The position numbers and the translations under genes are program-made. Below are positions 3,969 to 57,681 of a DNA stretch of 64,000 nt, piece by piece. The notes under the pieces were generated by a model that made no database searches, had not been told where the DNA came from, and was given only the letters and a program-made list of their open reading frames with translations. Origin of the DNA: an uncultured Actinomycetota bacterium (GTDB lineage Bacteria > Actinomycetota > Actinomycetes > JACCUZ01); contig CAWIXB010000001.1 of the NCBI GenBank assembly GCA_963839955.1, positions 1,887,492 to 1,951,491 on the forward strand, written 5' to 3'. The stretch's first letter is position 1; every line of letters starts with the position of its first letter.

Positions 3969-5316
3969 GACCGCAGCTGCCGCGCACCGCGGTGGCGAGC
4001 CGTCCGCCGAACCGTTCCTCCGCGTGCGCGACCTCGAGGTCCACTTCGCCCTCCGGGGCGGCAACCTCTCGCGGCTGGTCGGTCGCGACACCGGTGCCGT
4101 CAAGGCCGTCGACGGCGTGAGCTTCGACCTGCGCGAGGGTGAGGTCCTCGGCCTCGTGGGGGAGTCGGGATCAGGCAAGTCGACCCTCGGACGCGCCCTG
4201 CTCGGCCTCGTCCCGGCGACCAAGGGCAGCGTCGAGCTGCACGGGGAGCCGATCACCGGCCGCTCGGCGAAGGAGATGCGTCAGCTGCGCAAGACCCTCC
4301 AGATGGTCTTCCAGGACCCCCACGCGTCGCTCAACCCTTCGATGGACATCGAGACGGCGGTGGGGCACCCGCTGCGCATCCACGGCCTGACCAAGGGCAA
4401 GGCGGCCACCCGCCGCAAGGTGGTCGAGGCGCTCGATCGCGTCGGTCTGAGCCCCGTCGAGCGCTATCTCACGAAGTACCCCCGCGACCTGTCCGGTGGC
4501 CAGAAGCAGCGCGCTGTGCTCGCCCGCGCGACCATCCTCGACCCGGCGCTGCTCGTCGCGGACGAACCGATCTCGATGCTCGACATGAGCGTGCGTGCGA
4601 AGATCCTCGAACTGATGCTCGACCTGCGCCGCGAGCTCGACCTGACCTACGTCTACATCACCCACGACCTGGCGACGGCCAAGTTCTTCTGCGACCGGGT
4701 GGCGATCATGTATCTCGGCCGGATCGTCGAGATCGGCCCGGTCGAGGAGATCTTCCGCGACCCGAAGCACCCCTACACCCGGTCGCTGCTCGCAGCCATC
4801 CCCGAGCTCGACCCGACGTCCGAGGGTCCCCGCGACCTGCCGCGCGGCGAGATCCCCGACGCGGCCCGCCCGCCGCTCGGCTGCTCGTTCCACCCGCGCT
4901 GCCCGAAGGCGTTCGAGGTCTGCGGATGGGAGAGTCGCGACCTGCGCGTCCTGCTCGAGCAGCGGTGGCTGACGCTGGACGCCGACGAGTACGACCGCGA
5001 GCAGGCCTACTTCGGCGACCTGTCGGTGCTCGACGAGCCGGGGCACACAGTGAGGCTGACGTCCTCGCGCGGTCACTCCGGCGACGAAATCGCTGCGACC
5101 CTGCGTGCGATCAGGGAGTCCGACCCCGACGAGCCGCTGTGGCGAGGGCTGCGCGAGGTGAAGGTCGAGGCCGGGGCCGTCCGCCTGGAGTTCTTCGACG
5201 GCGTCGATCCGCAGCTGCGGGCGACGGGCGGGGTCGACGTGGCCTGCCACCTGCACGACTCGGCACAGCGGCGCGAGGCGGAGAAGCTCGAGGAACAGCA
5301 AGAGCTCGACGTATGA
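3952..5316 (+). CDS. ABC transporter ATP-binding protein (DppF/OppF-like) with a roughly 120-aa C-terminal extension
   Basis: Walker A GESGSGKST. Signature LSGGQKQR. Walker B LLVADEPISMLD. C-terminal CSFHPRCP motif followed by an unusual acidic extension. 4-nt class overlap with the upstream ATPase. Confidence 0.8.
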   Translation: MPTKPETAAAAHRGGEPSAEPFLRVRDLEVHFALRGGNLSRLVGRDTGAVKAVDGVSFDLREGEVLGLVGESGSGKSTLGRALLGLVPATKGSVELHGEPITGRSAKEMRQLRKTLQMVFQDPHASLNPSMDIETAVGHPLRIHGLTKGKAATRRKVVEALDRVGLSPVERYLTKYPRDLSGGQKQRAVLARATILDPALLVADEPISMLDMSVRAKILELMLDLRRELDLTYVYITHDLATAKFFCDRVAIMYLGRIVEIGPVEEIFRDPKHPYTRSLLAAIPELDPTSEGPRDLPRGEIPDAARPPLGCSFHPRCPKAFEVCGWESRDLRVLLEQRWLTLDADEYDREQAYFGDLSVLDEPGHTVRLTSSRGHSGDEIAATLRAIRESDPDEPLWRGLREVKVEAGAVRLEFFDGVDPQLRATGGVDVACHLHDSAQRREAEKLEEQQELDV

Positions 5317-13220: not shown

Positions 13221-13377
13221 ATAACGGCGCCGCAACGTGTCCGATGAATGACGCAACGATGACCCATTCGGACCACACGGTTCCTCTCGCGCGTTGAAGG
13301 TCACAACCAGACGTGCCGACGGTAGTGTCAGGATTGACGGCTTCCGACCGGGAGCACCCGCGAGGGGAGGTGACGCC

Positions 13378-15141
13378 GTGCCGACCAGCGGTGGCGAAGG
13401 GCGCGCAGGCGCATCGAGACGTCCACATGATCTGACCCAGCAAGTTGCCGCGTTGCAGGAGGAGGTCGACGCACTCCGTCGACGCCTCACCGAGTCTCCC
13501 CGCCACGTGCGCGCCCTCGAGGACCGCGTGGCGGATCTCCAGGCCAACTTGTCGTCGGTGACCACGCAGAACGACCGGCTCGTCACGACTCTCAAGGAGG
13601 CGCGCGACCAGATCATCGCCCTCAAGGAAGAGGTCGACCGGCTCGCGCAGCCGCCCGCCGGTTTCGGCGTGTTCATCGCGCGCAACGACGACGACACCGT
13701 CGACATCTTCACCGGCGGGCGCAAGCTGCGCGTCGCCGTGAGCCCCGGTGTCGAGCTCGACGATCTGCAGCGCGGCCAAGAGGTCATGCTCAACGAGGCG
13801 ATGAACGTCGTCGCGGCACTCAGGTTCGAAAGCGTCGGCGAAGTCGTCATGCTCAAGGAGCTGCTCGCCGACGGCGAGCGTGCGCTGGTCGTCGGGCACA
13901 CCGACGAGGAGAAGGTCGTCCGCCTCGCCGCGCCGCTGCGCGACGGCGAGCACCTGCGGGTCGGCGAGTCGCTGCTGCTCGAGCCGCGGTCGGGCTACGT
14001 CTACGAGCGGGTGCCCAAGTCCGAGGTCGAGGAGCTCGTCCTCGAAGAGGTTCCCGACATCGACTACACGCTGATCGGCGGCCTGGCCGCGCAGATCGAG
14101 CAGATCCGCGACGCGGTCGAGCTGCCCTACCTGCACCCCGAGCTGTTCCAGGAGCACCAGCTGCGCCCGCCCAAGGGTGTGCTGCTCTACGGCCCGCCCG
14201 GCTGCGGGAAGACCCTCATCGCGAAGGCCGTTGCCAACTCGCTGGCCAAGAAGGTCGCGGAGGTCACCGGCAAGCCCGAGGGCCGGTCGTTCTTCCTCAA
14301 CATCAAGGGCCCCGAGCTGCTCAACAAGTACGTCGGCGAGACCGAGCGACACATCCGGCTGGTGTTCTCCCGGGCTCGCGAGAAGGCGTCCGAGGGCACG
14401 CCGGTCATCGTGTTCTTCGACGAGATGGACTCGCTGTTCCGCACCCGCGGATCGGGTGTCTCCTCCGACGTCGAGAACACCATCGTGCCGCAGCTGCTCT
14501 CCGAGATCGACGGTGTCGAGGGCCTCGAGAACGTCCTCGTCATCGGCGCCTCCAACCGCGAGGACATGATCGACCCGGCGATCCTGCGGCCGGGCCGCCT
14601 CGACGTGAAGATCAAGATCGAGCGACCTGACGCCGAGTCCGCGCGTGACATCTTCTCGAAGTACATCAAGGCCGAGCTGCCGCTGCACCCCGACGACCTC
14701 AAGGAGAACGACGGCAACCGCGAGGCCACCGTCCACGGGATGATCCAGCGGACGGTCGAGCGGATGTACTCCGAGCTCGACGAGAACAAGTTCCTCGAGG
14801 TCACCTACGCCAACGGCGACAAGGAGATCCTCTATTTCAAGGACTTCAACTCCGGCGCGATGATCCAGAACATCGTCGACAGGGCGAAGAAGATGGCCAT
14901 CAAGGACTTCCTCGACCTCGGCCAGAAGGGCCTGCGCATCTCCCACCTGCTCGCCGCATGCGTCGACGAGTTCAAGGAGAACGAGGACCTGCCCAACACG
15001 ACGAACCCCGACGACTGGGCGCGCATCTCCGGCAAGAAGGGCGAGCGCATCGTCTACATCCGCACCCTCGTCCAGGGCAAGCAGGGCACCGAGGCGGGCC
15101 GCTCCATCGACACCGTCGCCAACACCGGCCAATACCTCTAA
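13378..15141 (+). CDS. arc: Proteasome-associated AAA ATPase ARC/Mpa
   Basis: N-terminal coiled coil. AAA Walker A GPPGCGKT. Walker [11 protein letters not shown]-terminal GQYL proteasome-docking motif. GAGGGGAGG RBS 7 nt upstream of the GTG at 13378 (in frame inside track ORF 13294..15141). Confidence 0.9.
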
Positions 15142-15216: not shown

Positions 15217-15323
15217 GCCTGTTGCGGCATCGTGTCGGAGTCCACCACCAGGTGCCTGCCGACCCTCGCCCGGTGGCCGGGCTATCGACCCGGACCATCC
15301 CCGCACGACGTACGCTGCCAGTC

Positions 15324-16838
15324 ATGAGCGTGTGGCGGGTCACCGGCACGGAGACCGAGTACGGCATCTCGGTGCCCGGCAACCCGGGCGCGAACGCGAT
15401 GCTCATCTCCTCGCAGGTCGTCAACGCCTACGCGCAGCCCTCGTCGGCTCGCAACCGCCGCGCCCGCTGGGACTTCGAGGAGGAGAGCCCGCTGCGTGAC
15501 GCGCGCGGCTTCGACCTCGCCCGCGACGTCGCCGACCCGTCGCAGCTCACCGACGAGGACGTCGGGCTCGCCAACATCATCCTCACCAACGGGGCACGGT
15601 TCTACGTCGACCACGCACACCCCGAGTACTCCGCGCCCGAGTGCACCAACCCCCGCGACGCCGTCATCTGGGACAAGGCGGGGGAGCTCATCATGGCGGA
15701 GGCGAGCCGGCGGGCCGGCCAGCTCCCCAACACGCCGCCGATCAACCTCTACAAGAACAACACCGACAACAAGGGCGCGTCCTACGGCACGCACGAGAAC
15801 TACCTGATGCCGCGTGAGACGCCGTTCGCCGACATCGTGCGCCACCTCACGCCGTTCTTCGTCTCGCGCCAGGTCGTCTGCGGTTCGGGCCGCGTCGGCA
15901 TCGGCCAGGACGGGCACACGAACGGCTTCCAGATCTCGCAGCGCGCCGACTACTTCGAGGTCGAGGTCGGTCTCGAGACCACGCTGAAGCGCCCGATCAT
16001 CAACACCCGCGACGAGCCGCACGCCGTGGCGGACAAGTACCGCCGGCTGCACGTCATCATCGGCGACGCGAACCTCTCCGAGGTCTCGACCTACCTCAAG
16101 ATCGGCACGACCTCGCTGGTGCTCGCGATGATCGAGGCCGGGTTTTTGTCGGTCGACCTTGTCGTCGACCGTCCTGTCGCGACTCTGCACGCGGTGTCCC
16201 ACGACGCGTCGCTGCGCGAGCTGGTGACGCTGCGCTCGGGCCGCACGCTGACCGCCGTACAGCTGCAGATGGAGTACGCCGAGCAGGCGCGCAAGTATGT
16301 CGAGGACCGCTACGGCGCGGACGCCGACGAGGTGACCACCGACGTCCTCGACCGCTGGGAGTCGGTGCTCACCCGGCTCGAGGCCGACCCGATGTCCTTG
16401 CACCGGGAGCTCGACTGGGTGGCCAAGCTGCAGATCCTCGAGGGCTACCGCTCGCGCGACGGGCTCGACTGGGACTCGCCCAGGCTCGCCGCCGTCGACC
16501 TGCAGTATTCCGACGTGCGTCCCGACAAGGGACTGTTCAACCGGCTGTCGGCGTCCGGGCGGTTCGACCGCATCGTGACCGACGACGAGATCGTCCGCGC
16601 GGTCACCGAGCCGCCGGAGGACACCCGCGCCTACTTCCGCGGCCGCTGCCTCGAGATGTACGCCAACGAGGTCGCCGCCGCGTCCTGGGACTCGGTCATC
16701 TTCGACCTGCCCGGGCACGAGTCGCTGCAGCGGGTGCCCACGCTCGAGCCGTTGCGCGGCACGAAAGAGCACGTCGGCGACCTCCTGGACCGCTGCAAGA
16801 CCGCGGAAGAGCTGGTTCGAGCCATCACCGGCAACTGA
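15324..16838 (+). CDS. dop: Pup deamidase/depupylase Dop
   Basis: N-terminal [29 protein letters not shown] motifs of the Dop/PafA carboxylate-amine ligase fold. Position between arc and pup. About 504 aa. Confidence 0.9.
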
Positions 16839-16848
16839 GCGGTCTCGC

Positions 16849-17886
16849 ATGCACATCGACGAGGCACGCGGGCTCTGGCAACCCGAGCCGGGCTGGCTCA
16901 ACACCGCCAGCTACGGCCTGCCGCCCACACCGGCATGGGACGAGCTGCAGGCGGCCCTGCAGATCTGGCGCGGTGGCATCAGGAGCTGGGAGGAGTGGGG
17001 GGAGTCGACCGAGCGTGCCAGGGCCGCGTTCGCCCGGCTGGTCTCCGTCGATGTCGCCGACGTCGCCACCGGTGCGACCGTGTCCGAGCTGATCGGCCCG
17101 ATCGCCGCATCGGTGCCGGACGGTGCACGCGTGGTGGTGCCCGACATCGAGTTCACCTCCAACCTGTTCCCGTGGCTGGTCCACGCGGACCGGGGAGTCG
17201 ACGTCGTCACCGTGCCGCCGGACAAGGTGGCCGACGCGATCGACGAGCGCACGTACGTCGTTGCGTTCAGCGCGGTGCAGTCGGCCACGGGCGAGGTGGC
17301 CGACCTCGAGGCGGTCAGCGCCGCGGCAGCAGCGGTCGATGCGCTCGTGGTCGTCGACGCGACGCAGGCGATCGGGTGGCTGCCGTTCGACGCGTCCCGC
17401 TTCGACGCGGTCGTCTGCGGCGGCTACAAGTGGCTGATGTCGCCGCGGGGCACCGCCTTCCTCGCCCTCAGCAGCCGCCTGCAGGAACGAGTCCGCCCGC
17501 ACAGCGCCGGGTGGTGCGCCGCCGAGGACGTGCACGGCGGCTACTACGGTCCGCCGTTGCGGCTGGCGGCCAGCGCGCGGCGATTCGACGTGTCACCGGC
17601 GTGGTTCAGCTGGGTGGGCGCCGCGCCGACGCTTGAGCTGGTCGAGTCGATCGGCGTCGCCGCGATCGGGGAGTACGACGTGGCGCTGGCCAACCGGTTC
17701 CGCGCCGGCCTCGGCCTCGAACCCAGCAACAGCGCCATCGTGGCGACCCGGCTCCCAGAGGCGGAGGAACGCCTCACCCGGGCCGGGATCCGGGCGGCGT
17801 CCCGGGCCGGCGGCCTGCGGGCGTCGTTCCACCTCTACACCACGGCCGACGACGTCGACAACGCACTGGAAGCGCTGGTCGGCTGA
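16849..17886 (+). CDS. Aminotransferase class V / cysteine desulfurase-like PLP-dependent enzyme
   Basis: 345 aa, fold-type I PLP enzyme pattern with the SAVQSATGEVADLEAV and GGYKWLMSPRG (Lys in the PLP-binding region) motifs. Inserted between dop and pup. Confidence 0.7.
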   Translation: MHIDEARGLWQPEPGWLNTASYGLPPTPAWDELQAALQIWRGGIRSWEEWGESTERARAAFARLVSVDVADVATGATVSELIGPIAASVPDGARVVVPDIEFTSNLFPWLVHADRGVDVVTVPPDKVADAIDERTYVVAFSAVQSATGEVADLEAVSAAAAAVDALVVVDATQAIGWLPFDASRFDAVVCGGYKWLMSPRGTAFLALSSRLQERVRPHSAGWCAAEDVHGGYYGPPLRLAASARRFDVSPAWFSWVGAAPTLELVESIGVAAIGEYDVALANRFRAGLGLEPSNSAIVATRLPEAEERLTRAGIRAASRAGGLRASFHLYTTADDVDNALEALVG

Positions 17887-17983
17887 GCGTCGGCCGCGCT
17901 TTGGCGGCAGACCGTGGGTGGCGACGACTAGGGTTTGAGAAGCACAGGGGTCCTCCGACGGCCCCACGGGAGGCTGGACCGAG

Positions 17984-18190
17984 ATGGCGAGCAAGGACGG
18001 CGGTCAGAAGCGCGCGTCGAAGGCGACCCAGAGCGCGAAGGAGGTCGAGGCTCAGGAGGCCTCCGACGTCGCCGAGCGCAAGGACAAGCTCGACGAGGAC
18101 ATCGACGCGATTCTCGATGAGATCGACGAGGCCTTAGAAGAGAACAGCGAGGAGTTCGTTCGGGGGTTCGTGCAAAAGGGGGGCGAGTGA
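17984..18190 (+). CDS. pup: Prokaryotic ubiquitin-like protein Pup (C-terminal GGE)
   Basis: 68 aa. Acidic helix [41 protein letters not shown] upstream. Terminal Glu rather than Gln. Confidence 0.9.
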   Translation: MASKDGGQKRASKATQSAKEVEAQEASDVAERKDKLDEDIDAILDEIDEALEENSEEFVRGFVQKGGE

Positions 18191-18945
18191 ATAACGCTGA
18201 CGACGAACCCCAGAAGCAGTGCCCCGACTGCACGGAGACCAAGCCGGTTTCGGAGTTCTGGCGGAATCGCGCGACAGCAGATGGCTTGTATGCCTATTGC
18301 AAGCCGTGCGGGCGTCAGCGAAATCTTGCCGCAGCAGTCAAGCGGCGCGCGGCGAAAGGGGTGGACAGTCCGAGAGCTCGCTCCCGCCCGATCGAGGATC
18401 TCCCGCCAGGGATGAAACGTTGCCTCGACTGCAAAGAGGTCCTGCCATTAGACGATTTCGTTCGTAACCGAAGGTGCGGCGACGGCAGGACTCCTTACTG
18501 CCGGAGATGTCAGTACGCACGGGTGGCAGAAAGTCGGCAGAGGTTGCACGGTGGATCGAGGCATTATCACCTGTCGCGCCGTTATGGCCTCGGCGCCAAA
18601 GATGTGCTCGCCAGGTTGAACCGCCAGGAATGGCGCTGTCCCATCTGTTCCGTTGCGCTGACCGAGAAGACCGCCCATGTCGACCATGACCACAAGACCG
18701 GGCAGGTCCGCGCAGTACTGTGCTTCAACTGCAACGGCGGCCTGGGTCAGTTCAAAGACAACCCGGCGGTGCTGCGCAACGCAGCGGCGTACGTGGAAGG
18801 AGAGGCGTGGCATCCCATCCAGGTGGCACCGGGGGTCTTCCTCGTGCCTTCCTCACCCCGGGCTCTTCCTCCTTCACCGACTTCCTCGGCGATTTTTCGC
18901 CTGAGCTGCTACCGGGACGACGTCGGCCTCCAGCGAGTCCCCTGA
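18187..18945 (+). CDS. Recombination endonuclease VII family protein (two N-terminal CxxC...YCxxC zinc-ribbon repeats plus a C-terminal Endo VII nuclease domain). Compositionally atypical insertion between pup and prcB
   Basis: Motif [24 protein letters not shown] matches the T4 gp49 / Endonuclease_7 family signature. GTG start overlaps the pup stop (GTGA). The 3' 139 nt overlap prcB out of frame. Region 18187-18800 is visibly less GC-rich, with AAT/TAT/ATT/TTA/AGA codons. Confidence 0.7.
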
Positions 18946-19652
18946 CCACCGAGGCGCCCCACGGCACCACCATCGTCGCGCTGACCTTCCCGGGCGGCGT
19001 GGTGATGACCGGCGACCGGCGCGCCACCATGGGCAACTACATCGCCCAGCGCGACATCGAGAAGGTCTTCCACGCCGACGACTTCTCCTGCGTGGGCATC
19101 GCCGGCACCGCCGGGCTCGCCATCGAGATCGTCCGTCTCTTCCAGGTCGAGCTCGAGCACTACGAGAAGATCGAGGGCACCACACTCTCCCTCGAGGGCA
19201 AGGCGAACAGACTCGCGCAGATGATCCGGGGCAACCTCGGCATGGCCATGCAGGGTCTCGCCGTCGTGCCGCTCTTCGCCGGATTCGACCCGGAGATCGA
19301 GGAGGGCCGCATCTTCTCCTACGACGTCACCGGTGGCCGCTACGAGGAACACAAGTTCCACTCCGTCGGATCCGGCTCGCTGTTCGCCCGCGGTGCGCTG
19401 AAGAAGCTCTGGACCGAGGAGATGACCCCGGAGGACGCCGTGCTCTGCAGCGTCCAGTCGCTCTACGACGCGGCCGACGAGGACTCCGCAACCGGCGGGC
19501 CCGACCTGACCCGGCGCATCTACCCGGTGGTGGCGACCGTGACCGACGAGGGTTTCCGCCGCCTCGCCGACGAAGAGGTGGGGGGCATCGTCGACACCGT
19601 GCTCTCCGGCCGGATGGAGAACCCCGGCGGACCCCAGGCACCGCTGCGATGA
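18807..19652 (+). CDS. prcB: Proteasome beta subunit PrcB with N-terminal propeptide
   Basis: Propeptide [16 protein letters not shown]...APHG followed by the catalytic Thr1 in [33 protein letters not shown] before the GTG at 18807. The ATG at 18720 would give an implausibly long propeptide. Confidence 0.85.
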
Positions 19653-19674
19653 CCGAGGAGACCGCACCGTGACG

Positions 19675-20493
19675 ATGCCCTTCGGATACGTCTCGCCCGA
19701 ACAGGTGATGAAGGACCGGGCCGACTACGCCCGGAAGGGCATCGCCCGTGGCCGCAGCGTCGTCGTGCTGGCCTACGACGGCGGCATCCTCTTCGTCGCC
19801 GAGAACCTCTCCCGAGCACTGCACAAGATCAGCGAGATCTACGACCGCATCGCCTTCGCGGCCGTCGGCAAGTACAACGAGTTCGAGAACCTCCGCATCG
19901 CCGGCGTACGCCTCGCTGACCTGCGCGGCTACTCCTACGACCGCCGCGACGTCACCGGCCGCGGCCTCGCCAACGCCTACGCCCAGACCCTGGGCACGAT
20001 CTTCACCCAGGAGTCCAAGCCCTACGAGGTCGAGATCGTCGTCGCCGAGGTGGGGGAGACGGCCGACGAGGACCAGATCTACCGGCTGACGTACGACGGC
20101 TCGGTGGCCGACGAGCACGGGTTCGTCGCCATGGGCGGCAAGTCCGACCAGATCCTGACGGCCCTCGAGGAGCGCTATCGCGACGGCATGACGTTCTCCG
20201 ACGCTCTCGCTCTCGCCGTCGAGCTGCTCGGGCGCGATCCGGTCTCCAACGAGCAGCGCAACCTGACGGCCGGCCAGCTCGAGGTCGCCGTGCTCGAGCG
20301 CGGCCGCCCGCGGCGCAAGTTCCGCCGCATCACCGGCGCGGCGCTCTCGCGGGCGCTCGGGCAACCGCCTGCGCCCGGCAACGGCGACGAGCCGGACAAC
20401 GGCGAGCACGAGAAGTCCCCGCCGACCGCCCTAGCCGGCGGCTCCCACGAGCCGGCCGGACCCGAACCCGGCGAGGACAGCCCGAGCACATGA
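19675..20493 (+). CDS. prcA: Proteasome alpha subunit PrcA
   Basis: N-terminal [32 protein letters not shown] closely resembles known PrcA N-termini. An alternative GTG start lies 6 nt upstream (19669). Confidence 0.9.
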
Positions 20494-21047
20494 CCGCCCC
20501 CGCAGAGCGGGTGGCCGAGCCCTGGGAGCTGCTCTCCGAGCGGCCGCGCACCGGTGGCTGGCTGCCCGTCGTCACCCGCACGTACCGGATGCCGGACGGC
20601 TCCGTCTCCGACTGGGACGTCCACAAGACCCCGTTCACCACCGTCTGCGTGCTCGCCCTGACCACGGAGGGGGACGTCGTGCTGACCCGGCAGTTCCGCC
20701 CCGGCCCGGGCGTCGTCGTCCACGACCTGCCCGGCGGCATCGTCGACGAGGGCGAGAGCCTCACCGAGGCTGCGCTCCGCGAGCTGCGCGAGGAGACGGG
20801 CTGGGCGGCCGAGCGGGCCGAGCTCGTCGGCTCGTCCTGGGCGTTCGGCGCCTCGACCTGGCGGCGCAACGTCGTTGTGGCCTATGACGCCCGGCCGGTC
20901 GGCGACGTCACCTCGTGGGGCGGCGAGGAGTACTGCGAGCCGATCGTGCTGTCCGTGGCCGAGTTCCGTGAGGTGCTGCGCAAGGGCAACACCACCGAGG
21001 CCGATCTCGGCTACCTCGCACTCGACGCCGCCGGACTGCTCTGCTGA
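20490..21047 (+). CDS. NUDIX hydrolase (ADP-ribose pyrophosphatase-like)
   Basis: Nudix box [23 protein letters not shown]. Start ATG overlaps the prcA stop (ATGA). Confidence 0.8.
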
Positions 21048-21090: not shown

Positions 21091-22470
21091 CCGGCGTACG
21101 GTGTGACGGTGGACCGGCGGATATTCGGGCTCGAGAACGAGTACGGCGTCACCTGCACCTTCCGCGGGCAGCGCCGGCTCTCCCCGGACGAGGTGGCGCG
21201 CTACCTGTTCCGCCGTGTCGTGTCCTGGGGCCGCAGCAGCAACGTGTTCCTGCGCAACGGCGCCCGGCTCTACCTCGACGTCGGCAGCCACCCCGAGTAC
21301 GCCACGCCCGAGTGCGACGACATCCGCGAGCTCGTCGTCCACGACAAGGCGGGGGAGCGCATCCTCGAGGGCCTGCTCGTCGACGCAGAGCGGCGGCTGC
21401 GCGAGGAGGGCATCGCCGGCGACGTCTACCTGTTCAAGAACAACACCGACTCGGCCGGCAACTCCTACGGCTGCCACGAGAACTACCTGGTCGGTCGGCA
21501 CGGTGAGTTCACCCGTCTCGCCGACGTGCTCATCCCGTTCCTGGTGTCGCGCCAGATCATCTGTGGCGCAGGGAAGGTCCTGCAGACACCGCGCGGTGCC
21601 GTCTACTGCGTGAGCCAGCGCGCCGAGCACATCTGGGAGGGCGTCTCCAGCGCCACGACCCGGTCACGGCCCATCATCAACACCCGCGACGAGCCGCACG
21701 CCGACGCCGAGCGCTACCGGCGGCTGCACGTCATCGTCGGCGACTCGAACATGAGCGAGACGACGACCCTGCTCAAGCTCGGCACCACCGACCTGGTGCT
21801 GCGGATGATCGAGGCGAACGTCGTCATGCGCGACCTGACGCTCGAGAACCCCATCCGCGCGATCCGTGAGATCAGTCACGACATCACCGGCCGCCGCAAG
21901 GTGCGCCTCGCCAACGGGCGCGAAGCCAGCGCGCTGGAGATCCAGACCGAGTACTTCACCAAGGCCCGCGACTTCGCGGCGCGTCGCGGTCTCGACGAGG
22001 GCGTCGTCAAGCAGGTGCTGAACCTGTGGGAGCGCACGCTGATCGCCGTCGAGACCGGGGACCTCGACTCCGTGGCGACCGAGATCGACTGGGTGATCAA
22101 GCGCCAGCTCATCGAGCGCTACAGCGCCAAGCACGGCCTGAGCCTGTCGTCGTCGAGGGTCGCCCAGCTCGACCTGGCCTACCACGACATCTCGCGGGAC
22201 CGCGGTCTGTTCTACCTGCTCCAGAAGCGGGGCATGGCCGAGCGAGTGGCCCGTGACCTGGACATATTCCAGGCCAAGTCGGTGCCGCCGCAGACGACCC
22301 GGGCGCGGCTGCGCGGGGAGTTCATCCGCCGTGCTCAGGAGCGCCGCCGGGACTTCACGGTCGACTGGGTGCATCTCAAGCTCAACGACCAGGCGCAGCG
22401 CACGGTGCTCTGCAAGGACCCCTTCCGAGCGGTCGACGAGCGTGTGGAGAAGCTGATCGCGAGCATGTGA
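21091..22470 (+). CDS. pafA: Pup--protein ligase PafA
   Basis: N-terminus [18 protein letters not shown] aligns with the PafA consensus MQRRIxGxExEYG. HENYLV, CGAGKV motifs. About 459 aa. Confidence 0.9.
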
Positions 22471-48342: not shown

Positions 48343-48720
48343 TCAGGCGCTCTTGCGATGGCTTCTGCTGGTACCCCCCTTGACCGCCCCTCTACCCGCT
48401 CGCAGGTGCTCCAGCCGCTCGGCCAGCAACACCTCGAGCTCCTTCACACTACGCCGTTCGAGCAGCATGTCCCAGTGGGTACGGGCAGCCTTACCCTTCT
48501 TTGGTTCCGGTCGGGTGCCGTCAACCCGCAGCGACTCAGCACCGCAGGTCGGGCATTCCCAGACCTCTGGGACATCTGCCTCCAGGGAGAACGGCATGGC
48601 GAATCGGTGCCCTGAGGCACAGTCGTACGTGACACTCTGGCGCGGCGCCATCTCGACGCCCGCGTCGGTCTCGTAACTCTGGGCGCCTAGACGCGAGCCA
48701 CGCAGTGCTCGCTCAGCCAT
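48343..48720 (-). CDS. rbpA: RNA polymerase-binding protein RbpA
   Basis: SVTYDCASGH...WECPTCGAESL zinc-ribbon-like core and a C-terminal sigma-interaction helix with RTHWDMLLERR. Confidence 0.85.
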   Translation of the reverse strand: MAERALRGSRLGAQSYETDAGVEMAPRQSVTYDCASGHRFAMPFSLEADVPEVWECPTCGAESLRVDGTRPEPKKGKAARTHWDMLLERRSVKELEVLLAERLEHLRAGRGAVKGGTSRSHRKSA

Positions 48721-56714: not shown

Positions 56715-57551
56715 CTAGCCGGGCGTCGCGTCGCGTTCGCTTCTTTCAGCGACGCTTCGGGCTTGCCCTTCGTGTATGTCGCTCACCCATTCCCAGCCGG
56801 GCTTGGCCGATGGGCCGATCCGCGGGTCGTCCTGACCGCCGCCGTCACGCAGGGCTTGCACGTACGCGCGGTCCTGTTCGATCCGTGCGCGTACCTGATC
56901 AGCTCCGCCGACTGACCCGTGACCCGGGATGACGACATCGACGTCGTCCGCCACGCCCTCCAGCAGCCTCAGCCCTGCGAGGTAGTCCTCGATCGGGTCA
57001 TTGGTGCCGTTGAAGTTGTCGAGCATCGGGATGAAGACATCCGAGAGCATGTCGCCGGCGACGAGAACCCCGCGATCCTCGATCAACAGTGCCGCATGTC
57101 CCGGGGAATGTGCCGGATGCTCGATGATCCGGACTTGAGGACCATCCCAAGGAATCTGTGCGGTTCCGGCGGGCAGACCGGTGATGAGGCCAAACAGGTC
57201 CAGCGGTGTCTCGTCGGCGATCTCTGGCGGTAACCCCTCGGCGACGCGGGCCTCCCAGTCCGCGTTCGACCGCACGTCTCGCATGAAGGCTGCGCAGCGG
57301 GCTGTGCCGTAACGGGGTACTTCGCCGAGCTCGGTGTGCCAGAGCACGTGATCCCAGTCAGGATGCGTCGCGAAGCCTGCCACAACGGGCTGGCCCAACT
57401 CGCGAACGTCGTTCGCGAGGCAGGCCATTTCGGAGCCTTCTATCCCGGGGTCGACGAGCAACACGCCGGCCCGGCCTTGCACGACCGCTGTGTTGTTCGC
57501 GAGTAGCTCGCTCTGGTGGACCAGCACACCTTCCGCGACCTGCGTCAGCAT
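56715..57551 (-). CDS. MBL-fold metallo-hydrolase
   Basis: HxHxDH motif (ATHPDWDHV) and downstream His/Asp ligands. Start at the internal ATG (residue 26 of track ORF 56715..57626). Confidence 0.75.
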   Translation of the reverse strand: MLTQVAEGVLVHQSELLANNTAVVQGRAGVLLVDPGIEGSEMACLANDVRELGQPVVAGFATHPDWDHVLWHTELGEVPRYGTARCAAFMRDVRSNADWEARVAEGLPPEIADETPLDLFGLITGLPAGTAQIPWDGPQVRIIEHPAHSPGHAALLIEDRGVLVAGDMLSDVFIPMLDNFNGTNDPIEDYLAGLRLLEGVADDVDVVIPGHGSVGGADQVRARIEQDRAYVQALRDGGGQDDPRIGPSAKPGWEWVSDIHEGQARSVAERSERDATPG

Positions 57552-57681
57552 GGGGCTCCTTCCGCGTGTGGCTTGCGTCTCGGCCGGCACCGGATCGGCT
57601 CGTGCTCGAGATCGAACCCCTGTCACGGATCCGCGCCCCGAAACCCTGTCAGAAAGGCGTGACGCTCACCACACGAACGAC

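Follow-up and report, generated by a model that had tools for sequence, protein, structure and literature searches.

An old endonuclease VII family cistron between pup and prcB in the Pup-proteasome operon of Actinomycetota

A nuclease gene held at the pup-prcB junction

The 64-kb stretch of DNA analysed here (64,000 nt of contig CAWIXB010000001.1, assembly GCA_963839955.1, of an uncultured Actinomycetota bacterium; hereafter the window) carries a Pup-proteasome locus in which a gene for an endonuclease VII / Hpy99I-type His-Me finger nuclease stands between pup and prcB (Table 1). An earlier note, made from the sequence of the window, regarded this gene as consistent with a recent horizontal acquisition and held that its insertion had created the overlap with prcB. 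Our analysis leads to a different view: with a probability of about 0.9, the gene is an old, syntenic and intact nuclease cistron of the pup-prcBA operon, the composition and prcB overlap of which were inherited. At the level of the phylum, the nuclease is an old, fixed cistron of this operon in a large subset of the Actinomycetota.

A search of 5.8 billion proteins returned 325 homologues, the best non-self one being 64% identical and syntenic. When genomes were scanned, one per species, at least 547 proved to contain a relative (best match to the window nuclease, 56% identity), and the best 80 loci were analysed. The nuclease gene is immediately preceded by pup in all 80 loci and followed by prcB in 79 of them, the remaining locus ending with its contig. 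They belong to Streptomycetaceae, Micromonosporaceae, Geodermatophilaceae, Thermomonosporaceae and Frankiales/Mycobacteriales metagenome-assembled genomes (MAGs). Every homologue for which the context was retrieved lies at a pup-prcB junction: this is the case in Streptacidiphilus carbonis, a MAG, Spirillospora, an Acidimicrobiia MAG, a Streptomyces and the nearest relative (64% identity). In this last locus, as in the window, the nuclease start and the pup stop overlap by four bases, and a NUDIX hydrolase gene follows prcA. The nearest relatives of the window (loci L089/L090, L004 and L091) also have the same gene in the same position.

The nuclease has mostly been inherited with its neighbours. 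Distances between nucleases follow those between dop, prcB and prcA (Pearson 0.88; Mantel 0/999) at a rate about two to three times higher, and distances between catalytic domains follow those between mature PrcB proteins (r 0.91, 89 loci). Of the nuclease clusters present in its host clade, the window copy belongs to the majority one; judged by dop and prcBA, the loci closest to the window come from Actinomycetes/Actinomycetota MAGs (L009, L011). In hosts of the window clade whose mature PrcB is 84-87% identical, the catalytic half is either 72-74% (L089, L004) or 49% (L091, L093) identical to that of the window, and a second nuclease allele lineage is thus present in sister hosts.

Start, stop and overlap junctions

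As the earlier note had described, the nuclease start and the pup stop overlap as GTGA (GTG at 18187-18189, TGA at 18188-18190). This GTG is the sole start codon located 5' of the first cysteine pair, and orthologous nucleases likewise start at, or a few bases from, the pup stop. Judging from the sequence, the Lys-Gly-Gly codons of pup (AAGGGGGG in the window, AAAGGAGGT or AAAGGGGGT in Micromonospora loci) could act as the ribosome-binding site of the nuclease. In loci devoid of the nuclease, it is frequently prcB that begins at the pup stop, through a shared ATGA or TGATG; the nuclease has taken the coupled position next to the pup stop that prcB holds in those loci. The C-terminal Lys-Gly-Gly codons of Pup spell a Shine-Dalgarno sequence for whichever cistron comes next (AAAGGAGGT in many Micromonospora), and the codon choice at the very end of pup (last 15 nt in Micromonospora; 18176-18183 in the window) is unusually A/T-rich.

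At the other end of the gene, the ribosome-binding site and the GTG start of prcB lie inside the nuclease open reading frame (ORF), the two genes overlapping by 139 nt, which also agrees with the earlier description. The first base of the prcB GTG ends nuclease codon 207, and its other two bases open the codon of the conserved Trp208. When the junctions were read in both frames, a prcB Shine-Dalgarno sequence and GTG were found at the homologous position in Streptomycetaceae, Micromonosporaceae, MAGs and the window, embedded across families in a nuclease motif Y-[LV]-[EKR]-G-x-x-W. The assignment of the prcB start to position 18807 is supported by this conservation across families.

The length of the overlap has a history of its own. 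In Streptomycetaceae and in locus L008, the nuclease ends with APGVYRLPS and its TGA stop falls in the stretch TTC CTG ACx of the prcB frame, so that the two genes overlap by 49 nt; common to several families, this 49-nt overlap is ancestral. In the window, prcB carries the synonymous leucine codon CTC instead of CTG (18852-18854, change at 18854), which turned the nuclease stop TGA into TCA and added 30 codons to the nuclease, up to the next TGA. The overlap of 139 nt is thus made of 49 ancestral nucleotides and 90 nt of read-through, because the prcB-synonymous CTG to CTC change removed the nuclease stop, and the proposal that an insertion had created it was not borne out. The resulting tail (aa 223-252) comes from reading the DNA of the prcB propeptide in a second frame, and prcB dictates its sequence and its GC content at third codon positions (GC3). 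It is missing from the 201-228 aa forms of the nuclease, is present only in the nearest clade (P0002, P0003, P0007, P0034, P0060, P0102) and is probably without function.

Public prcB calls in nuclease loci are cut to 215-232 aa and start past the nuclease stop (L004, 4822-5469; L089, 1218-1916). This shortening is a systematic annotation artefact, which drops part of the propeptide and apparently serves to avoid the overlap with the nuclease. In many actinomycetes, a nuclease cistron located between pup and prcB physically holds the ribosome-binding site and the start codon of prcB. This has a bearing on models of pup/prcBA stoichiometry and on genetics, as deleting the nuclease without sparing its last ~50 nt, the ancestral overlap, and the Shine-Dalgarno sequence upstream will disrupt the translation of prcB.

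Composition and codon usage

The lower GC content and the A/T-ending codons reported in the earlier note were recovered. Indeed, the nuclease ORF has a GC content of 0.625 and a GC3 of 0.71, whereas the GC3 of arc, dop, the aminotransferase gene, pup, prcB, prcA, the NUDIX hydrolase gene and pafA ranges from 0.87 to 0.95, and nowhere else in the window does the best-phase GC fall as low as in the nuclease region (0.64; 450-nt sliding window). Within the window nuclease, the GC3 is 0.66 for the N-terminal module versus 0.80 for the catalytic half. The same depression is found family-wide: mean GC3 over the 80 loci is 0.788 for the nuclease versus 0.950 for dop, 0.930 for prcB and 0.941 for prcA, and the nuclease lies below its neighbours in 79 loci, the one other locus being frameshifted. 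The catalytic half of the Micromonospora nucleases has a GC3 of 0.81 and a synonymous divergence (dS) of 0.38, and the flanking genes have dS values of 0.37-0.45; since these divergences are equal, the catalytic half was inherited together with its flanks while keeping its low GC3. A restriction of the low GC3 to the exchangeable N-terminal module was considered and rejected for the family (0.78 versus 0.79; in Micromonospora 0.79 versus 0.81).

Two other genes of the window have comparable values, namely rbpA, coding for the RNA polymerase-binding protein (48343-48720, minus strand; Pfam E 1.4e-44; GC3 0.73), and a gene for a metallo-beta-lactamase-fold protein (56715-57626, minus strand; GC3 0.75). 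Low GC3 is therefore not confined to foreign genes in this host genome.

TTA codons occur in 16 of the 80 nuclease genes (16 in 19,199 codons) versus once in 80,937 codons of dop, prcB and prcA, an enrichment of about 67-fold. In the window, in-frame TTA codons are found at Leu88 of the nuclease (18448-18450) and at codon 51 of pup (18134-18136), and there are none in arc, dop, prcB, prcA, the NUDIX hydrolase gene and pafA. TTA codons depend on the bldA tRNA in Streptomyces.

The depressed GC3 is a stable property of the nuclease family and not a signal of transfer. It may reflect weak codon selection, or selection for a low translation of a potentially harmful nuclease. More generally, low GC3 and A/T-ending codons in a high-GC actinomycete do not of themselves point to recent transfer; this signature is also borne by core genes, rbpA among them, and by the orthologues that occupy the site in other families. 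The earlier note had regarded close relatives with the gene at the same position and with host-like codon usage as the mark of an ancient resident; such relatives do carry the gene at this position, but their codon usage is not host-like either.

A recent horizontal insertion of a foreign selfish nuclease gene at the pup/prcB junction of the window is, in our opinion, very improbable and for the most part refuted. The contrast in GC3 (0.71 versus ~0.9 in the neighbours), the A/T-ending codons including TTA, the existence of phage homologues and the predominance of junctions without the gene would all fit such an event. However, (i) the nuclease occupies the same site across families and in all closest relatives with enough sequence (L089, L004, L091 and L093, with remnants in L092 and L098), (ii) its low GC3 is family-wide, extends to vertically inherited parts and is matched by rbpA, (iii) the prcB initiation region embedded in the nuclease is common to several families, and (iv) the best phage match is only ~33% identical, whereas the best non-self protein, 64% identical, is syntenic.

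Domain organisation and relatives of the nuclease

The assignment of the ORF to the endonuclease VII family, made in the earlier note from a 24-letter signature (aa 164-187; letters not printed here), stands: the protein matches Pfam PF02945 (Endonuclease_7) with 73.3 bits (cut-off 23.6) and an E-value of 1.5e-20 over aa 129-204, i.e. profile positions 4-81 out of 82. The two CxxC...YCxxC repeats pointed out in that note correspond to C12/C15/C38/C41 and C79/C82/C105/C108. In an alignment of 25 sequences, C151, C154, D166, H167, H169, C179, C182 and N183 do not vary; when 91 homologues are aligned, the invariant residues are C79, C82, C108, C154, H167, H169, C179, C182 and N183, and those conserved at 90% or more are C12, C15, C38, C105, C151 and D166. 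The catalytic motif CxxC...DHxH...RxxxCxxCN is intact in all 80 orthologues from named genomes. An AlphaFold2 model of the protein (mean pLDDT 90.4) consists of two beta-ribbon and helix repeats (aa 9-56, with strands in 9-38 and a helix in 39-56, and aa 76-121), followed by a beta-beta-alpha core (strands 163-167 and 174-179, then a helix). According to Foldseek, the predicted beta-beta-alpha-metal fold matches the structures 3fc3 and 1en7, and in profile alignments the zinc cysteines C151, C154, C179 and C182 align with cysteines of T4 endonuclease VII and Hpy99I. These features predict that the ORF codes for a His-Me finger DNA endonuclease that is intact, depends on zinc and belongs to the endonuclease VII / Hpy99I family, and in which the zinc-ribbon module would set target recognition and the catalytic domain would cut DNA. 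No Pfam model matched the N-terminal module above threshold (best, Stc1, 22.6 bits versus a cut-off of 24.8), no NCBIfam model was found for the nuclease, and PADLOC gave a match to REase_II (E 1e-9) that covers the generic catalytic core only.

Uncharacterised actinobacterial Endonuclease_7 genes, frequently located downstream of the Pup gene or upstream of the gene of the proteasome beta subunit, were reported as group 13 by Jablonska et al. (2017; NAR 45:11479; PMC5714182), who suggested a role for them in the Pup-proteasome system. The window nuclease has the same family and neighbourhood and belongs to this group, to which that paper devotes one sentence and a supplementary figure, with nothing on function, prcB overlap, codon usage, losses or module variation. 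No experimental work on Endonuclease_7 genes at the pup/prcB junction was found in the literature, and the nuclease is not mentioned in a 2021 review of the Pup-proteasome system (PMC8223512) or in Iyer et al. (2008). The window gene, only 64% identical to the nearest sequence found, is a new member of a known but unstudied group.

Among proteins of solved structure, the best relative is the restriction enzyme Hpy99I (3fc3), by profile comparison (E 2e-13; nuclease aa 72-198 versus Hpy99I residues 74-196) as well as by fold (Foldseek E 4e-6, 142 columns). Both proteins have, in the same order, a Cys4 zinc ribbon and a Cys4-stabilised His-Me core, including the motif DH.H..G..R...C..CN.GLG.FKD.P. 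They differ in that identity is ~28%, that residues 1-73 of Hpy99I are unmatched, the window nuclease having a second zinc ribbon there, and that the window nuclease sits in a housekeeping operon. No methyltransferase was found next to the nuclease, whether among the pup/prcB neighbours in the window and the 80 loci or among the called genes of L001, L004, L005, L086, L088 and L089.

This likeness raises the question of whether the gene encodes an anti-phage or anti-plasmid defence nuclease, restriction-like and possibly modification-dependent, lodged by chance in a proteasome operon. Hpy99I as the closest solved structure and the REase_II match point in this direction, and defence genes typically show, like this nuclease, a patchy distribution, a low GC3 and a recognition module diversified by balancing-type selection. 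Nevertheless, we consider this improbable: an adjacent methyltransferase or other defence partner is lacking, the PADLOC match is confined to the generic core, and the gene is always found between pup and prcB and not in a variable island, a fixity across classes that is unlike the turnover of defence islands.

T4 endonuclease VII (gp49; 1en7, 1e7d, 2qnc) cleaves Holliday junctions and mismatches. It belongs to the same Pfam family, and its N-terminal helix, zinc site and H-N-H core align with the window nuclease over T4 residues 10-87, that is over the core only (E 3e-11; Foldseek E 5e-3); D166, H167, H169 and N183 presumably correspond to D40, H41, H43 and N62 of the T4 enzyme. The helical C-terminal domain through which the latter forms its domain-swapped dimer (residues ~90-157) has no counterpart in the window nuclease, where the catalytic core is followed by ~20 residues (the prcB initiation region) and then by the read-through tail, and the T4 enzyme is devoid of N-terminal zinc ribbons. 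Structure-specific cleavage is not to be taken for granted in the window nuclease.

Outside the locus, the nuclease has its closest relatives in this restriction enzyme and in free-standing endonuclease VII/HNH genes of phages. The same architecture of zinc ribbon(s) and core is also found in such genes of actinophages and other phages (phrog_2633, phrog_2914, phrog_1035; Streptomyces phage PumpkinSpice group), phrog_2633 matching aa 73-206 with an E-value of 1.5e-42 and full-length tblastn matches reaching 87% query coverage at 32-34% identity. The operon lineage differs from these phage genes in being locus-specific and mostly inherited vertically with the host genes.

The number of zinc ribbons in homologues varies from one to three (variants in L093, 1-800, and in P0070, P0081, P0082 and P0120): locus L093 encodes a three-ribbon nuclease, and forms of 138-158 aa (in a Streptomyces sp., an Actinomycetes MAG and an Acidimicrobiia MAG) have a single ribbon, this minimal unit having the architecture of phage phrog_2633. 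Loci of the Thermomonosporaceae type (L005, L068, L069, L078, L079, L081 and L084, from Spirillospora, Actinomadura, Actinoallomurus and a MAG) encode longer nucleases of 370-412 aa with a tandem second endonuclease VII domain and without prcB overlap; in L069 and L081, 1.8-2.8 kb of extra DNA separates the nuclease from prcB.

Loss, decay and dispensability

A metagenome scan anchored on PrcB provided 54 loci in which the sequence extends 900 bp or more upstream of prcB. A nuclease match was found in seven of them, whereas pup abuts prcB in the other 47, in accordance with the earlier statement that pup is normally followed directly by prcB. Two of the seven nuclease-positive loci are degenerate (L092, L098), and at least two of the 47 empty ones are scarred (L122, L125). 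The loci whose PrcB is closest to that of the window (79-82% full-length identity) display four nuclease states: (i) a copy in L091 that is intact, though very divergent; (ii) a three-ribbon form in L093; (iii) a deletion remnant in L092 (1877-2200), reduced to the last ~60 codons, i.e. the part with the prcB start, with a degenerate HNH motif; and (iv) a frameshifted pseudogene without catalytic motif in L098 (570-1060). The pup-prcB spacers of the two scarred loci bear traces of the nuclease 3' end around the prcB start, namely LVEGNVWKPTLVAQGVCRLPS followed by a stop in L125 and YLEG in L122. These remnants and scars at the prcB start imply that the gene can be lost while the piece needed for prcB translation stays. 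Intact, degenerate and empty pup/prcB sites coexist among related hosts, which suggests that the nuclease is dispensable for the proteasome system.

Given that L092 and L098 are such remnants, the window copy might itself be a decaying pseudogene, giving no functional protein and kept only for the prcB start in its 3' end; the lost stop, the 30-codon tail and the very low GC3 of the N-terminal module (0.66) could be taken in the same sense. This is very improbable, since the frame is open throughout, all 12 zinc cysteines as well as D166, H167, H169 and N183 are intact, the structural model is confident and the tail is common to several intact relatives.

Selection and exchange of the zinc-ribbon module

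Where it is intact, the nuclease is under purifying selection: among 57 Micromonosporaceae, its ratio of nonsynonymous to synonymous divergence (dN/dS) is 0.26-0.28, versus 0.10-0.25 for the neighbouring genes. When Micromonospora loci are compared in pairs, nucleotide identity is 90-100% in dop, pup, prcB and the catalytic half of the nuclease, and only 22-60% in the ~350 nt of the two zinc ribbons, with sharp module boundaries at the pup stop and at about codon 115. The nucleases of 47 Micromonospora species (loci L013-L085, N-terminal module at ~4490-4850 in locus coordinates) fall into two classes, of 23 and 24 species, with ~35% protein divergence. The two classes are scattered at random over the phylogeny of the flanking genes: flank distances are 0.0892 for same-class pairs and 0.0896 for different-class pairs, 23 class runs were observed along the host tree versus 24.4 expected at random, and the nearest host neighbour is of the same class in 32 of the 47 species. 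Winogradskya (L064) carries a type-3-like allele.

Within a class, the N-terminal module has a dS of 1.1-1.4 and a dN/dS of 0.14-0.15, whereas the catalytic half has a dS of 0.38 and a dN/dS of 0.17, with distances unrelated to the module class. From this difference in dS and the low dN/dS, it follows that the module alleles are far older than the flanks of the species that carry them and were functionally kept; they have moved between species by recombination. The N-terminal module is thus incongruent with the host phylogeny in Micromonospora, and the window clade has its second allele lineage, whereas the catalytic half tracks the host genes. A recent sweep as the cause of the high identity of the catalytic half between Micromonospora species was rejected, its dS of 0.38 being that of the flanks. 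The dimorphic and shuffled module of Micromonospora makes the recognition target of the nuclease experimentally approachable.

Possible roles of the nuclease

The gene can be read as a free-standing nuclease that has persisted and whose dynamics are of a selfish or conflict type, rather than as a core component of the proteasome, a reading to which we give even odds. It is based on the patchy distribution, on the coexistence of intact, degenerate and empty sites, on the fixed site between conserved genes, on the phage and restriction-enzyme relatives, and on the shuffled and anciently polymorphic module. According to this scheme, the nuclease would be translated at a low level by coupling to pup and through rare codons, including TTA, which would keep a potentially toxic enzyme scarce; homing or allele exclusion could take place at the pup/prcB junction; and the gene would undergo repeated loss or decay, yet be maintained by purifying selection where present, its recognition module being swapped between species.

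Free-standing homing endonucleases are known to lodge between conserved genes, as do the seg and mob genes of T-even phages. The nuclease gene resembles them in its small size, its sporadic distribution and its position between a pair of highly conserved genes; in addition, sites in related hosts may be intact, degenerate or empty, and there is a partial incongruence with the host phylogeny. It differs from them in that its catalytic half has long been vertical under purifying selection, and in that it supplies the translation start of the downstream gene, so that no clean excision is possible. Patchiness, decay and module exchange somewhat favour a selfish free-standing nuclease, be it as deep origin or as continuing lifestyle.

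A more specific and more tentative proposal, which we regard as rather doubtful, is that of a locus-specific endonuclease whose vertical catalytic core and interchangeable, ancient zinc-ribbon alleles would make up a homing or allele-exclusion element embedded in the operon, or else a conflict system; hard to delete since it carries the prcB start, such an element may influence recombination or gene flow at the proteasome locus or beyond.

Several points weigh against this picture of an intact, sparingly translated and selfish nuclease. Long vertical retention and purifying selection on the catalytic half in Micromonospora are unlike a simple homing cycle, and a benefit to the host would fit them equally well. 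Module-type-specific synonymous 'immunity' substitutions in the 3' end of pup were not seen. The dS of the N-terminal module is near saturation and could also reflect a locally raised mutation rate, the host tree was built on ~3 kb of flanks, and the figure of 80 intact motifs out of 80 is biased, the sample having been chosen for similarity to an intact query. Finally, low expression is a cause that we infer for the low GC3, and the target and role of the nuclease are deduced from sequence for every member of the family.

A host-beneficial accessory of the Pup-proteasome system, namely a DNA repair or recombination enzyme cutting junctions, mismatches or branched DNA, co-expressed with pup-prcBA and linking proteasomal degradation to the DNA-damage response, has to be weighed against the selfish or conflict-type reading. 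Retention in the operon with tight coupling at both junctions, purifying selection and the vertical catalytic half are in its favour, as are the structure-specific activity of the T4 relative and the role in the Pup-proteasome system suggested by Jablonska et al. (2017; PMC5714182). Furthermore, PafBC and the locus are tightly tied to the DNA-damage response according to the review cited above (PMC8223512), and pafC is present in the window. However, the nuclease is missing at 47 of 54 pup-prcB junctions and in the model mycobacterial locus of the reviews, it has repeatedly decayed or been deleted in close relatives, and a hypervariable, horizontally shuffled recognition module would be unusual for a housekeeping repair enzyme. 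The T4-type dimerisation domain is also lacking, and the solved structure that comes closest is that of a restriction enzyme with sequence specificity. A repair accessory is less likely than the selfish or conflict-type reading, but it is a serious rival to it.

Organisation of the locus

Table 1. Features of the Pup-proteasome locus in the window (positions in the 64-kb stretch; aa, residues of the nuclease).
Feature	Position	Strand	Remarks
arc/mpa	13294-15141		
dop	15222-16838		
Class-V aminotransferase gene	16849-17886		between dop and pup
pup	17984-18190	+	68 aa, ending in QKGGE; Pfam PF05639, E 1.4e-24; cistron upstream of the nuclease
Lys-Gly-Gly codons of pup, AAGGGGGG	18176-18183	+	Shine-Dalgarno-like, 3 nt 5' of the nuclease GTG; read from the sequence
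Endonuclease VII / Hpy99I-type His-Me finger nuclease ORF	18187-18945	+	252 codons (252 aa)
Zinc ribbon 1, then helix	18220-18309	+	C12, C15, C38, C41; ribbon 1 cysteines at least 90% conserved (91-homologue alignment)
Zinc ribbon 2, then helix	18421-18510	+	C79, C82, C105, C108; aligns with the first zinc site of Hpy99I
Catalytic beta-beta-alpha-metal domain	18571-18798	+	aa 129-204; Pfam PF02945
Zinc ligands and active-site residues of the catalytic domain			C151, C154, C179, C182; D166, H167, H169, N183
prcB ribosome-binding site GGAAGGAGAGG (18795-18805) and GTG start (18807)	18795-18809	+	within the nuclease motif Y-V-E-G-E-A-W
prcB	18807-19652	+	281 aa including propeptide; mature N-terminus TTIVAL; Pfam PF00227, E 1.3e-39
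Lost ancestral nuclease stop, TCA here	18853-18855	+	two-frame comparison of junctions
Remainder of the read-through tail	18856-18945	+	aa 224-252 and stop TGA (18943-18945); 30 codons with Ser223 (18853-18855)
prcA	19669-20493	+	Pfam PF00227
NUDIX hydrolase gene	20490-21047		ATG overlaps the prcA stop
pafA	end at 22470		followed by an FKBP gene and, further on, a gene for a PafC-type regulator

Rfam and tRNA scans of the window gave no matches, and a promoter/terminator scan of 16700-20700 gave nothing above chance. Compared with the textbook arrangement of Pup-proteasome genes, the locus has two extra genes besides the nuclease, coding for the aminotransferase and the NUDIX hydrolase. The NUDIX hydrolase gene after prcA is common to the window, L004 and L089/L090, and an aminotransferase gene between dop and pup was not seen in the other loci inspected. 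The longest ORF for pafA (TTG at 20875, 531 aa) overlaps the NUDIX hydrolase gene by ~170 nt and its Pup_ligase domain begins at residue 82; the true pafA start is probably located further downstream than this TTG.

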